From a bacterium (GTDB lineage: Bacteria > Patescibacteriota > Minisyncoccia > Phycocordibacterales > UBA6899): 64,000 nt of DNA. The notes under the pieces were generated by a model that was not told the DNA's origin, did not search any database, and saw only the letters and a program-made list of their open reading frames with translations. The DNA is taken from the NCBI GenBank assembly GCA_043743715.1, contig JAYTWK010000015.1, positions 6,576 through 70,575 of the forward strand, written 5' to 3'. Both the position numbers and the translations under genes were made by a program. Each line of letters opens with the position of its first letter. Positions within the stretch are counted from its first letter, which is position 1. Shown here piece by piece: positions 32,150-35,996 of the stretch.

Positions 32150-33838
32150 ATGAATGTACTCATTTCTCAATTGCATAGTTCTTCACTCGATCTGATTATT
32201 CTTTTGATTGCACTTGCGATCGATATATTCCTTGCATTCATCGTCTATCTCAGCAATACAAAAAGCGCCACCAACAAGGTGTTCTCACTCCTCACTCTCT
32301 TCATGATGTTCTGGCTCGTGACGACCTATGCGCCGAGGATACCTGAATTACTGCCATACTCACTCCTCCTGCACCGGCTAGGAATATTCTTTGCCGCAGC
32401 AATGAGTGCGCTTTTTTTCCTGCTTGCGCACACAATGCCGGAAGAAAAGATTCAGCTGAAGAAACCCTGGTCCATCGCGTTCTGGATGTCGACGCTCCTG
32501 ATGATGACCCTGAACCTCTCACCATATGCATTCGTCAGCAGCACTATGGTAGACGGAGTGAGCCAGCCTCAGCCGGGCATAGGATTCATTCCATTTGCAT
32601 TTTTTTCGACATTATTCAGCATCCTTACGGTGTATGTCCTAGTTCATAAATATCGGCACTCCTCGGGGCATATCAAGCGCCAGATATGGTTGGTACTTTC
32701 GGGAATAGTCATCATGCTTGCCCTGGTCATTGCGACCATTCTTATTCCAATCATGTTCTTTGACTCACTCCAGTTCCTCTCCTTTGCGCCGCTCTATACA
32801 CTAGTATTCCTCGGCATGACCGCCTATGCCATCACCAAGTACCAACTGTTTGATATCAAAGTACTTGTCACTCAGGCGCTGACGCTCATCCTCTGTCTGA
32901 TACTTTTTGCAAAATTCTTAGGCGAAGGAAACGTCAGCGGCCGCGCTGTCGACGGTCTTCTCCTGTTTGTTGTTTCTATTTTGGGTTTCTTTCTCGTAAA
33001 AAGTGTGCGGAAGGAAGTCGAAGCACGCATTGAGATTCGTTCACTCGCAGACGAGCTCGCAGCAACCAACGTACAGCTTGAAGTCTCAAACGAGCGACTG
33101 CGCATCCTTGATCAGCGCAAGAGTGAATTCGTTTCGATTGCGTCTCATCAGCTGCGTACGCCGGTGACCGCGATGAAAGGATATTCATCACTGTTGCTTG
33201 AAAACGCGTATGGAGCACTGCCGGAGAAGATGAAAGATCCGGTAGAAAAGATATTCCGTTCGTCGGACCGCCTGGCGCTCATGATCAACGACTTCCTGAA
33301 CGTATCGAAGATCGAGCAGGGGTCGATGACCTACGCCTTTGTACCTCTTGATCTTAAGAAGATGGTCATAGACCTCGTGCAAGACTTCCACATCGTGGCT
33401 GGAGAGAAGAAGCTTGATCTTGAAACCGACATTCCTGATGGCGAGAAATTCAATGTAGTCGCGGATGAAGGAAAGATCAGGCAGATTATCTCAAACCTCA
33501 TTGATAACTCTATCAAATACACTCCAAAGGGTAGCGTACGCCTTATCCTTGCGAAAGAGCCGACACACGGCGAGGACGGTATGATACTGCTCCAGATCAA
33601 AGACACCGGTATCGGACTCTCTCAAGATGACATCCACCATCTGTTCGGCAAATTTACCCGCGGGGCAGAGGGCTCGAAAGTGAATACTTCAGGCTCCGGC
33701 CTCGGCCTGTATGTGGCGAAGAAAATGATGGAAGAGCACAAGGGAAATATTTGGGTGGATTCAGAGGGGAAAGGGAAAGGCTCGGTGTTTTGCATAGAAC
33801 TACCTGAGTTTCACAACGAGCTACCGAAGACTCCGTAA
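32150..33838 (+). CDS. Sensor histidine kinase (7-TM N-terminal sensor, coiled coil, HisKA, HATPase_c)
   Basis: H-box SHQLRTPVTAMKGY. G-boxes GSGLGLYVAKKMMEEHKGNIWVDSEGKGKGSVF. Multiple N-terminal TM helices. No response regulator in the window. Confidence 0.85.
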   Translation: MNVLISQLHSSSLDLIILLIALAIDIFLAFIVYLSNTKSATNKVFSLLTLFMMFWLVTTYAPRIPELLPYSLLLHRLGIFFAAAMSALFFLLAHTMPEEKIQLKKPWSIAFWMSTLLMMTLNLSPYAFVSSTMVDGVSQPQPGIGFIPFAFFSTLFSILTVYVLVHKYRHSSGHIKRQIWLVLSGIVIMLALVIATILIPIMFFDSLQFLSFAPLYTLVFLGMTAYAITKYQLFDIKVLVTQALTLILCLILFAKFLGEGNVSGRAVDGLLLFVVSILGFFLVKSVRKEVEARIEIRSLADELAATNVQLEVSNERLRILDQRKSEFVSIASHQLRTPVTAMKGYSSLLLENAYGALPEKMKDPVEKIFRSSDRLALMINDFLNVSKIEQGSMTYAFVPLDLKKMVIDLVQDFHIVAGEKKLDLETDIPDGEKFNVVADEGKIRQIISNLIDNSIKYTPKGSVRLILAKEPTHGEDGMILLQIKDTGIGLSQDDIHHLFGKFTRGAEGSKVNTSGSGLGLYVAKKMMEEHKGNIWVDSEGKGKGSVFCIELPEFHNELPKTP

Positions 33839-33861
33839 CTCTGCTAAAATCGCTCTATTAT
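33833..33861 (+). repeat. Left copy of a 29-nt direct repeat (CCGTAACTCTGCTAAAATCGCTCTATTAT) flanking the AT-rich island
   Basis: 27 of 29 positions identical to 35968-35996. Confidence 0.7.
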
Positions 33862-33882
33862 CAAATATGCCCAAAAAAGAAT

Positions 33883-34308
33883 ATGGATCTCACCATTCAA
33901 CTTGAAGGAATAAAACTAAATATACGGGTTGCGATACTTATTAAAACAGCAAAGGGGTACCTCTTTGAGAAGGGAAACAAAGGTTATTTATTTACGCTTG
34001 GAGGAAGAGTAAAGATAGGTGAAACTTCATTTGAGGCAGCAAAAAGAGAGGTGTTCGAAGAAATTGCCTATGATATTAAGAACATCAAACTTATGGCGAT
34101 TGTTGAAAATTTTTTTGGTCCTCTTGATGCACGGGTACAGGAGATCTGTTTTGTGTATAGCCATGAGGGAACAGTCGATATCAAATTGCCAGCAGAATTT
34201 GTCGAATTAAAAACATCTGAACTTGCCGACCAGGATATCAGGCCTGAGGTTATGAAAAAGATCATCGCTGAATCAAAAGATGGGATCAATCACTACATTA
34301 TTAAATAA
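33883..34308 (+). CDS. NUDIX hydrolase
   Basis: Nudix box GGRVKIGETSFEAAKREVFEEIAY (Gx5Ex7REUxEExGU). Confidence 0.75.
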   Translation: MDLTIQLEGIKLNIRVAILIKTAKGYLFEKGNKGYLFTLGGRVKIGETSFEAAKREVFEEIAYDIKNIKLMAIVENFFGPLDARVQEICFVYSHEGTVDIKLPAEFVELKTSELADQDIRPEVMKKIIAESKDGINHYIIK

Positions 34309-34356
34309 CATGGTGATTCGTTTATAATTTCCCTACAACGTAAAATTTGAATTATA

Positions 34357-35235
34357 ATGGAAAATGCGAATGAAATGTTGTTTTCTAGGCACCTTGATGA
34401 AGTCGATGACCTGAAAACATACGGGCGAGACGCACCACTCGAAAGATCACCAGAAAATCACGAAAAATTAGAGAAGGCAACTGAAGCGATATATCAAAAA
34501 ATAGTTACTTCGGGTAAAAAAGCGGTACTCTTTATTACTTCTCCAAGAGTGAGGGCAACCGAAACCGCTGAACTGATCGCAATGGGATTAACGCAGAGAG
34601 ACCCTTCTCTCAAAATAAGATTTTCTTCAAATGAGGATTTGAAAGCGACTGAACAGGGAGAATTCGTGCTGCCTGATGATTACGAGCAAAATAATTTTTT
34701 TGTGGGCCTTGATATCGCATCTAAGATATTCACAAAAGAAGCTCACCTGTCGGATGAGCAAGGAATGGAGGATAATATCTCTTATCGATTTGGGGATCCA
34801 ATACAATTACCTGATGGTAGCTACAAATATCCCGAGCTAGTCGAACACTTCACTAAAACAGGCGAATCATATGCTGAGACTCTCTCACGCATTTTCAATT
34901 CTGTTCTTGAAATGAGTGGGAAGTACGACAAGCTTATGGAAGCAACGGAAGTCGTGATCGTTGCACATGGTCAAATTTATCACGTACTAAGAGGGCTGTC
35001 AGAGATTCATCGAATGATCAAAGATGGTGAGATCGAATTCAAAAAAGGCGACTCAATGAAACTTATATGGAAAATCTATAATGATTGTGATCCAAGTCAA
35101 AAAGTAACAGGAATATGTATGCCATTAGATTTTAATGCACTAAATGACCCTGCTGCCATGTCTTTGCTTGAGGGAGAAAGAGAGATATTACAAGGAGCCA
35201 CTGATTCTGATAGCCATGGACATCGAAAAACTTAG
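34357..35235 (+). CDS. Histidine-phosphatase (phosphoglycerate-mutase-like) superfamily protein, tentative
   Basis: ...ITSPRVRATETAE... and ...VVIVAHGQI... resemble the SixA/PGM branch motifs. The N-terminal RHG motif is degenerate (SRHLDE). Confidence 0.35.
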   Translation: MENANEMLFSRHLDEVDDLKTYGRDAPLERSPENHEKLEKATEAIYQKIVTSGKKAVLFITSPRVRATETAELIAMGLTQRDPSLKIRFSSNEDLKATEQGEFVLPDDYEQNNFFVGLDIASKIFTKEAHLSDEQGMEDNISYRFGDPIQLPDGSYKYPELVEHFTKTGESYAETLSRIFNSVLEMSGKYDKLMEATEVVIVAHGQIYHVLRGLSEIHRMIKDGEIEFKKGDSMKLIWKIYNDCDPSQKVTGICMPLDFNALNDPAAMSLLEGEREILQGATDSDSHGHRKT

Positions 35236-35908
35236 CCGCGAGATACCACTCTTAGGCTGCAGCGAAAATATAAAGTGCTTTTTATTATATGGTTCTTTGC
35301 TTAATAAAAACCTAGGTGACAAAAAAGACTCTGACATCATAGTTGTACTCAAAGACATGGGGGCAGATCAAAAGGAATTGGCTGATTTTATTTATAATAA
35401 TCTTCCAAATCCTGATCTTCATGTGTATTCCTCAGAAGAAGTTGAGAGTGATCTTGCATTTTATACCAGAGAATATATCCTCGAATACCTTTCAAAAGGA
35501 TATGTTTTGTATGGCGAGAACGTATTCAAGAAAAAATTCAGTCAGGTGGCAAAAAAACAATACTGTGAAAGTATTCTTATCAGATCATTTGCGCATGTAC
35601 AAATGGTCAGAAAGACATATTTTAATACCAATCACAATCTTGAATATAAATCATCTTATACTAAAAAATACATCATTAGATTATCGAAGAATATACTTCT
35701 TTTTAAGGGCCTCGAGACTTACGATAAGCTGGACATCTTGTCAGATGAACAGGTGGTGGAAATCATCCAAAAAAATGATTTACTCGATGCGGGGTATCGC
35801 TTTAATGATAATACTCAGCCACTTGAATATTTCTTTAGATTATTTTGCGATCTTGGGCATAACTTGATAGATTTTCAAAATGAATTCGCTAAAGAACAAA
35901 AAGCCTGA
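35216..35908 (+). CDS. Nucleotidyltransferase-domain protein (KNTase-like: N-terminal minimal NTase plus a C-terminal helical domain)
   Basis: LLYGSLLNKNLGDKKDSDIIVVL matches the GS...D.D NTase motif. The start was reassigned to the ATG at 35216. Confidence 0.5.
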   Translation: MDIEKLSREIPLLGCSENIKCFLLYGSLLNKNLGDKKDSDIIVVLKDMGADQKELADFIYNNLPNPDLHVYSSEEVESDLAFYTREYILEYLSKGYVLYGENVFKKKFSQVAKKQYCESILIRSFAHVQMVRKTYFNTNHNLEYKSSYTKKYIIRLSKNILLFKGLETYDKLDILSDEQVVEIIQKNDLLDAGYRFNDNTQPLEYFFRLFCDLGHNLIDFQNEFAKEQKA

Positions 35909-35967
35909 TTTTTCGTGTCTGCCCGATATGACATACGTTTGTAATTGCTGCGTCCTACCAAATACCC

Positions 35968-35996
35968 CGTAATTCTGCTAAAATCGCTCTACTATG
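35968..35996 (+). repeat. Right copy of the 29-nt direct repeat (CCGTAATTCTGCTAAAATCGCTCTACTAT), ending at the trpS start codon
   Basis: See the left copy. Confidence 0.7.

Follow-up and report, generated by a model that had tools for sequence, protein, structure and literature searches.

A three-enzyme cassette between two copies of a trpS upstream unit in a Candidate Phyla Radiation genome

We analyzed 64,000 nucleotides of contig JAYTWK010000015.1, from an ultra-small bacterium that has not been cultured (GenBank assembly GCA_043743715.1; positions 6,576 to 70,575 of the forward strand), a stretch referred to below as the window. In the window, a gene for a seven-transmembrane (7TM) sensor histidine kinase is separated from trpS by a cassette that encodes a NUDIX hydrolase, a histidine-phosphatase-fold protein and a Pol-beta-type nucleotidyltransferase (NTase); the cassette is bracketed by two copies of a short direct repeat (Table 1). 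The best matches to the window trpS came from Paceibacteria and Lloydbacteria-like metagenome-assembled genomes of the Candidate Phyla Radiation (CPR). The analysis described here makes it probable that the cassette, which lacks a recombinase of its own, was inserted at a hot spot between the kinase gene and trpS, and that a promoter unit of 37-44 nt was duplicated in the process.

Table 1. Features of the kinase-trpS locus (window coordinates)
Feature	Coordinates	Strand	Remarks
7TM sensor histidine kinase	32150-33838	+	Left flank; 3' end overlaps trpS promoter unit
Left unit copy	33821-33864	+	Kinase tail, extended -10, decayed trpS start; presumed cassette promoter
Cassette interior	33865-35954	+	2,090 nt; GC 0.371
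NUDIX hydrolase	33883-34308	+	141 aa; Nudix box G(41)x5Ex7REVFEEIAY
Histidine-phosphatase-fold protein	34357-35235	+	292 aa; fold-level match
Pol-beta-type nucleotidyltransferase	35216-35908	+	230 aa; C-terminal HEPN-like helical domain; ANT/KNTase architecture
Right unit copy	35955-35998	+	Dead kinase tail, extended -10, trpS ATG at 35994; putative working trpS promoter
trpS	35994-37055	+	353 aa; right flank; no Shine-Dalgarno

The first-pass annotation of the window had described a 29-nt direct repeat, with 27 of 29 positions identical, at 33833-33861 and 35968-35996. This core occurs exactly twice in the window, and 0 of 100 dinucleotide-preserving shuffles gave a 29-mer match; the first position and the identity count stand, whereas the second copy lies one base away from where it had been placed, at 35967-35995. 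Ungapped extension of the core yields a 44-nt direct repeat (38 of 44 positions identical) with a spacing of 2134 nt. The left copy encodes the last five codons of the kinase and its stop (CTA CCG AAG ACT CCG TAA, or LPKTP-stop), and in the right copy a dead form of this tail persists, its stop codon still in register (CTA CCA AAT ACC CCG TAA, or LPNTP-stop). Both copies contain the extended -10 element TGCTAAAAT, located at 33842-33850 in the left copy and at 35976-35984 in the right copy. From the -10 hexamer it is 9 nt to the trpS ATG in the right copy or, in the left copy, to an ATC at 33860-33862 that is the decayed equivalent of that start codon; the TTATG stretch differs between the two copies, and neither copy contains a Shine-Dalgarno sequence. 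As had been reported, each copy ends near a start codon: the NUDIX ATG at 33883 is 21 nt past the core of the left copy, and the right copy reaches the trpS ATG.

The interior of the cassette had been described as visibly AT-rich, and a windowed comparison bears this out, with GC content of 0.371 against 0.491 in the rest of the window. The value is the lowest of all 2,090-nt windows and is 4.6 standard deviations (sd) below the mean. The three genes that had been called in the interior were recovered at the same open reading frames (ORFs), the last two of which overlap by 20 nt.

Read toward the ATG, the sequence upstream of trpS presents a CTACCAAA box, a 13-nt spacer, a TG-n-TAAAAT extended -10 element and a further 9 nt; the box, CTACC(A/G)AA, is located 21 nt upstream of the TG. 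Within the fetched loci, 1.4 Mb in total, the geometry CT(A/T)CC(G/A)AA-N13-TG-N-TAnnnT followed by an ATG within 14 nt (in short form, CT(A/T)CC(G/A)AA-N13-TGNTANNNT) was found only upstream of trpS. The matches include loci L003 and L004, which have no adjacent kinase gene, as well as L116 and L117, whose TrpRS is of another type; the architecture was detected before trpS in five relatives, spanning both trpS types. In a sister species (contigs L089 and L090), in which trpS is 93% identical at the protein level and 85% identical at the DNA level, the right copy is identical at 42 of 44 positions, and the remaining intergenic sequence cannot be aligned.

Because the unit has been kept in the sister species while its surroundings have diverged, we regard it as conserved in the role of a trpS promoter. 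A reading of its left 18 nt as a mere relic of the kinase tail was dropped: L003 and L004 keep the CTACCAAA box at the same distance from the -10 element with no kinase adjacent, which argues that these 18 nt are a promoter element as well. Judged by conservation and spacing, the 44-nt unit is the entire conserved trpS promoter as predicted, from the -35 position to the start codon, and it overlaps the last five kinase codons. Since the ATG is only 9 nt after the -10 element and is not preceded by a Shine-Dalgarno sequence, the trpS mRNA is probably leaderless or nearly so. The left copy most likely drives the NUDIX/phosphatase/NTase operon. As an alternative to insertion, the first-pass annotation had offered a shared promoter used twice; given that the unit is the trpS-upstream architecture of five relatives, this description also holds, and it is compatible with insertion. 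A known riboswitch, T-box or leader was ruled out as the identity of the repeat, as no Rfam match was obtained for positions 33700-36100 at E values of up to 1. On both strands, segment 35905-35998 folded no better than shuffles did (z = -0.04 and -1.19).

Relatives share the local gene order dnaJ, thiF, a nitroreductase-like gene, the kinase gene, trpS, a gene for a 313-aa membrane protein, and aspS. A species-level genome scan probed with trpS returned only relatives with ≤76% identity, which are too distant for a test of the empty site; the kinase is a better probe. The window kinase is a mosaic in which the catalytic half is 94% identical to that of protein P0044, whereas the sensor half is only ~30% identical. 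On the 5,482-nt contig that encodes P0044 (ERZ27296333), the kinase gene spans 1315-2991 and ends in an LPKTP tail, and a 351-aa trpS begins at 3013. The gap of 21 nt equals the distance from the TAA to the ATG (or ATC) inside each copy of the unit in the window, which points to an empty site with the ancestral order of kinase, gap and trpS.

The interval between the kinase gene and trpS differs considerably among relatives. There is nothing between the two genes in L116 and L117, a 159-aa membrane ORF in L003, a 101-aa ORF in L007, radical-SAM and PNP genes in L111 and a P-loop kinase gene in L119; in L112, the interval holds ~5 kb of other enzyme genes, and in L110 it amounts to >8 kb. The kinase C-terminal tails split right after a conserved ELP, continuing as KTP, DNN, K, TKN, PK, KE or KA. 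Because the content of the interval varies and the tails diverge at this point, we identify the junction as a hot spot for accessory genes.

Locus L112, from a sister lineage of the relative that encodes P0044, provides a second case of duplication. Its trpS and aspS are ~91% identical to those of the window, and its kinase is 88% identical to P0044 in an alignment that ends exactly at LP. The unit is present in L112 at 11824-11860 and 14680-14716 (36 of 37 positions identical), bracketing a 2.8-kb cargo unrelated to that of the window: a UCP032817-like gene, an alpha/beta hydrolase gene and an inverted glycosyltransferase gene. At 0.553, the GC content of this cargo exceeds that of the remainder of the locus (0.463); the cargo is thus foreign too, but in the direction opposite to the window cassette. 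The left boundary CTACC is common to the window unit and both L112 copies. The kinase-trpS hot spot has received insertions repeatedly, and on at least two occasions the unit was duplicated, each time around other cargo. The first-pass annotation had proposed that the three genes are an inserted cassette, and this proposal gains support from the apparent empty site of the P0044 contig, the second duplication in L112, the foreign composition of the cassette, and the presence of the same three genes in unrelated contexts (see below).

Other observations concern the genes on either side of the junction and the cargo between them. Kinases across the clade are mosaics: the catalytic half of the window kinase is 92-94% identical to those of P0044, P0045 and P0046, whose sensor halves are ~30% identical to that of the window. 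Conversely arranged, P0039 (in the compared set P0039-P0070) joins a window-like sensor half to a P0050-like catalytic half. The breakpoint of these mosaics is the junction of the transmembrane and HisKA domains. At L116 11683-12678 and L117 2979-3956, trpS has been swapped in situ for a gene encoding a TrpRS of 325-331 aa with 35% identity to that of the window; the replacement keeps the position between the kinase gene and the gene for the 313-aa protein, the promoter geometry and the first four codons (MKKT). With these kinase mosaics and the in-situ replacement of trpS, the neighborhood is visibly recombinogenic. Hot-spot cargo at L112 9698-11805 and L119 3301-3768 comprises GrpB (NTase fold), a 198-aa ORF, an AAA_33/zeta-toxin-like P-loop kinase and a NUDIX protein with 63% identity to the window NUDIX hydrolase; this set is analogous to the trio of the window, with the kinase replacing the phosphatase.

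Within the trio, only the NUDIX hydrolase passes its Pfam threshold. It matches PF00293 with 38.7 bits (gathering cut-off 21.1; E 1.2e-9), and its Nudix box, GRVKIGETSFEAAKREVFEEIAY, is intact relative to Gx5Ex7REUxEExGU except that the final G is replaced by A. The 292-aa protein scored 21.4 bits against the Pfam histidine phosphatase model, just under the cut-off of 21.7; its predicted structure, which has a predicted local distance difference test (pLDDT) score of 92.6, resembles Ykr043c/Shb17 and PGAMs according to Foldseek (E 1e-7). Within the phosphatase family, H12, R24, R66, H204 and G205 are invariant, whereas the Arg of the canonical RHG motif is variable; the family includes only 32 clusters, all from CPR-type sources.

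The NTase has four invariant residues (G26, D38, D40 and D67). Its sole Pfam match, to PF18765, reached 20.9 bits where the cut-off is 26.9, and none of the ANT or KNTase models in Pfam matched; antibiotic nucleotidyltransferases are its best fold matches, at 10-14% identity. No ANT was returned when the NTase was searched against PDB with phmmer, and PDB sequence searches with the NTase and the phosphatase gave marginal matches only. The label KNTase-like, assigned in the first-pass annotation, therefore applies to the fold, in terms of ANT/KNTase architecture and catalytic residues, and does not extend to membership in the sequence family. Among 1.84 billion proteins, the NTase family forms 91 clusters at 50% identity. 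Fusions of the NTase with NUDIX (five) and with GNAT (two) are among its members; in more distant members, the fusion partner is an ion-channel or alpha/beta-hydrolase domain.

The trio occurs in at least three genomic contexts. It is already at the kinase-trpS position in the sister species (L089 and L090); in L083-L088 it lies between infC and a DUF1295 gene, and in L091 it follows tRNA-Thr immediately, with the phosphatase gene first, then those for NUDIX and the NTase. In both the infC/DUF1295 and the tRNA-Thr contexts, the GC content of the trio is below that of the host. No flanking repeats were found around the trio in L083 or L091, which ties the duplication to the site instead of the cargo. 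The NUDIX/phosphatase/NTase set is a conserved module restricted to CPR bacteria, and as cargo it appears to be horizontally mobile. Conserved linkage, permuted gene order and fusions show, as far as gene arrangement can speak for function, that the three predicted enzymes act jointly.

We propose the following sequence of events. In the ancestral state, the kinase stop codon would have been followed by 21 nt and the trpS ATG, with the trpS promoter overlapping the last five kinase codons. Incoming DNA carrying a copy of the unit would integrate by a single crossover of the Campbell type, thereby duplicating the 37-44-nt unit. The left copy would preserve the kinase reading frame and most likely drive the incoming operon, and the right copy would keep the essential trpS gene expressed while retaining the dead kinase tail. 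Recombination between the two copies would precisely excise the cassette and restore the empty site. The recombinase would be encoded off the cassette; the step could be carried out by host short-homology recombination or by an enzyme acting in trans. Because the unit is the only conserved non-coding sequence at the locus, homology-driven exchange between lineages is the favored route. The recurrent CTACC boundary hints at site specificity.

Several observations weigh against this proposal. The single-copy junction of the P0044 contig was deduced from gene coordinates and the kinase tail, and the contigs of the sister species are too short to reach the left junction. No recombinase was found on the cassette, among the Pfam labels of the relatives' cargo or in 29 other ORFs of the window, and the unit lacks dyad symmetry. 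The promoter function of the unit is read from conservation and geometry, and a scan with the sigma-70 consensus did not call the unit, a miss that we attribute to the poor match of the box at the -35 position to TTGACA. Likewise, the function suggested for the trio is drawn from folds, fusions and neighboring cargo.

Three established types of mobile element were considered and rejected. A target-site duplication, which the first-pass annotation had suggested, is unlikely: inverted repeats were not found at the ends of the island, there is no transposase, and at 37-44 nt (44 nt in the window) the duplication is too long for a transposon, which duplicates 2-15 bp. An integron gene cassette is contradicted by the absence of an attC hairpin and of any inverted repeat at either copy. 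A dif-like site has 28 bp, with two inverted 11-bp arms around a 6-bp spacer; in Xer/dif elements of this kind (IMEX, pdif) such symmetry would be expected, whereas the 44-mer has none and TTATG is not conserved between the copies.

A different account of the same locus would make the 44-nt unit a true attachment site for a dedicated recombinase encoded elsewhere, that is, a platform for capture and expression comparable to attI plus a Pc-like promoter, at which circular cassettes are inserted in succession. CTACC marks the left boundary of the unit in the window and in both L112 copies, and it is also where P0044 and P0045 diverge; one unit brackets two different cargos, each unit copy lies upstream of a plus-strand operon, and presence and absence appear to be precisely polymorphic. 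However, no integrase, Xer or serine recombinase was identified in any cargo set or in the 29 window ORFs, and no hairpin or inverted repeat was detected in or beside either copy. The unit was also absent from the viral contigs scanned, and a scan of Joint Genome Institute (JGI) metagenomes with an 18-nt core returned 18 single matches, none of them flank-like or adjoining trpS or a kinase gene, as expected by chance. The duplicated unit moreover coincides with what appears to be a functional promoter. Taken together, these points make a dedicated attachment site unlikely. A broader version is somewhat more doubtful still: the trpS promoter unit could be a dedicated capture site that only this group of CPR bacteria possesses, where a trans-acting recombinase or a pathway independent of RecA inserts promoterless cassettes again and again, with the promoter copied at every insertion. 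If so, new cassettes would be expressed at once and the essential gene would never be uncoupled from its promoter, an integron-like function achieved on a different principle, and the cargo would include a previously undescribed module of NUDIX hydrolase, histidine phosphatase and ANT-like NTase.

Returning to the inserted cassette and what its cargo may do, the NTase would transfer a nucleotidyl group, the NUDIX hydrolase would cleave a nucleoside-diphosphate-linked compound, and the histidine phosphatase would remove a phosphate. We tentatively suggest, as the likeliest of the roles considered but still less probable than not, that the trio modifies or detoxifies a small molecule or nucleotide analogue. 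This suggestion derives from the ANT-like fold, the GNAT fusions and the other cargo of the hot spot, which includes an AAA_33/zeta-toxin-type P-loop kinase, GrpB, methyltransferases, hydrolases and a glycosyltransferase.

The first-pass annotation had raised a role in defense or anti-defense. On this account, the trio would serve in anti-phage defense or nucleotide signaling, with a Hailong/HalB-like or CBASS-like NTase and with the NUDIX hydrolase and phosphatase as signal degraders. PADLOC did return matches, but these are weak and confined to the generic Nudix box and the G-S...DxD segment of the NTase, and in none of its contexts does the trio have an effector or channel gene beside it. 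By fold, the NTase is closest to antibiotic nucleotidyltransferases; HalB is a weaker match than the ANTs, and no CD-NTase is among the best matches. Close relatives of the NTase are fused to GNAT acetyltransferases, in the manner of bifunctional drug-modifying enzymes. Phage relatives were not found among viral contigs for either protein family, nor when the phosphatase and NTase were compared by tblastn with 50,697 phage records. We therefore consider a defense role improbable. As specific candidates, a cGAS/DncV-like NTase of CBASS was rejected for want of a CD-NTase fold match and an adjacent effector, and an MNT-HEPN toxin-antitoxin system was rejected because the combination of a HEPN protein bearing an Rx4-6H RNase motif with a minimal NTase was not found.

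It is very improbable that the trio is an old resident operon, with no mobile cassette and with the repeat being a local promoter duplication or a gene-converted pair kept by both operons: both copies indeed have promoter positions, the trio is already present here in the sister species and the repeat unit is under selection, but the site appears to be empty in a relative with 94% identity in the catalytic half of the kinase, the GC content is 4.6 sd under the window mean, the trio recurs in unrelated contexts, the right copy bears a dead kinase tail with its stop in register, and in L112 the unit surrounds unrelated, GC-rich cargo.

Elsewhere in the window, we noted additional repeats and accessory genes. 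A direct repeat of ~115 nt, 78% identical, occurs at 38054-38176, between the gene for the 313-aa membrane protein and aspS, and at 57683-57805, directly upstream of rpmA (L27; 57839-58114). Neither copy matched an Rfam family; a small RNA, a leader and a miniature element are all conceivable identities for the repeat. In tRNA-Pro(GGG) (56799-56870), the final 32 nt recur 91 nt downstream, at 56930-56961, with 94% identity, a pattern that suggests an att-type duplication of the tRNA end or a scar left by an element since lost. Between a glycosyltransferase-4 gene and ftsW, positions 44233-48382 encode a 1,035-aa Type ISP restriction-modification enzyme (N6_Mtase and Type_ISP_C) and a ParA-like ATPase, with GC content of 0.40-0.43 in part; we found no flanking direct repeat around this segment. 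In L117, the glycosyltransferase-4 gene and ftsW are 180 nt apart with no called gene between them, and on this basis the segment is a second variable slot of the window. Repeat tracts of the CTACTTACTA type at 19783-19821, 26878-26916, 42884-42929 and 50962-50985 are located directly upstream of start codons and include no Shine-Dalgarno sequence; they may be a lineage-specific translation-initiation or leader motif. The 280-aa product of 7855-8697 unites an ATP-cone with an Mrr-type restriction-endonuclease core and an AF1548-like C-terminal domain, an unusual architecture for a nucleotide-sensing nuclease.

CPR bacteria (Patescibacteria) have tiny genomes with few recognizable mobile elements. 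Much of their gene content was apparently acquired horizontally (PMC12455944). The kinase-trpS locus offers a base-pair view of how small accessory operons enter such genomes, at one junction and with no integrase on the element. With the promoter of an essential gene duplicated whole, both the cargo and the essential gene would stay expressed. The rare, CPR-restricted trio is a good target for biochemistry, given its linkage, permuted order and fusions; it may detoxify antibiotics or nucleotide analogues in organisms that rely on scavenged nucleotides. As a kind of element, the cassette belongs with small integrase-less genomic islets and is not categorically new; its new features are a geometry that duplicates the promoter, a CPR host and this set of three enzymes.

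Comparison with known systems places the cargo and the site separately. At the level of fold, the NTase resembles ANT(4')/KNTase, AAD(9)/ANT(3'')(9), AadA and LinB in having an NTase domain followed by a C-terminal helical domain and in its G-S/DxD/D residues. It differs from these enzymes in sequence (10-14% identity) and in being tied to a NUDIX hydrolase and a histidine phosphatase.

With respect to the site, an integron platform consists of intI, attI, the Pc promoter and attC-bounded cassettes. Like an integron, the kinase-trpS junction gathers different promoterless cargo at one site for expression, as we would predict, from a resident promoter; unlike an integron, it has no intI and no attC hairpin, and the promoter itself is duplicated with each insertion. 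Islands that target the ends of tRNA or other essential genes, bring a replacement copy of the target and are bounded by attL and attR offer another parallel, in that the duplication restores the interrupted target and makes the insertion neutral for the essential gene. As with the tRNA-targeting islands, the cargo is compositionally foreign, and one copy of the trio adjoins tRNA-Thr (L091). The present target, by contrast, is a 5' promoter region and not a 3' end, the element encodes no integrase, and its cargo amounts to only 2.1 kb.

The H47 island of Escherichia coli is the closest documented precedent. It has no integrase and is flanked by imperfect direct repeats, and its excision and integration are reported to depend on host functions but not on RecA (PMC3191183, PMC5426353). 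The kinase-trpS cassette differs from H47 in that its repeat, only 37-44 nt long, comprises the complete putative promoter from which an essential aminoacyl-tRNA synthetase gene would be transcribed, and overlaps the preceding gene at its 3' end; it also differs in having a CPR host and in that its mobility is deduced from sequence comparison. The two elements share a small block of cargo, imperfect direct repeats and the lack of a recombinase on the element, and the apparent polymorphism of empty and occupied sites described here is compatible with the behavior of H47.

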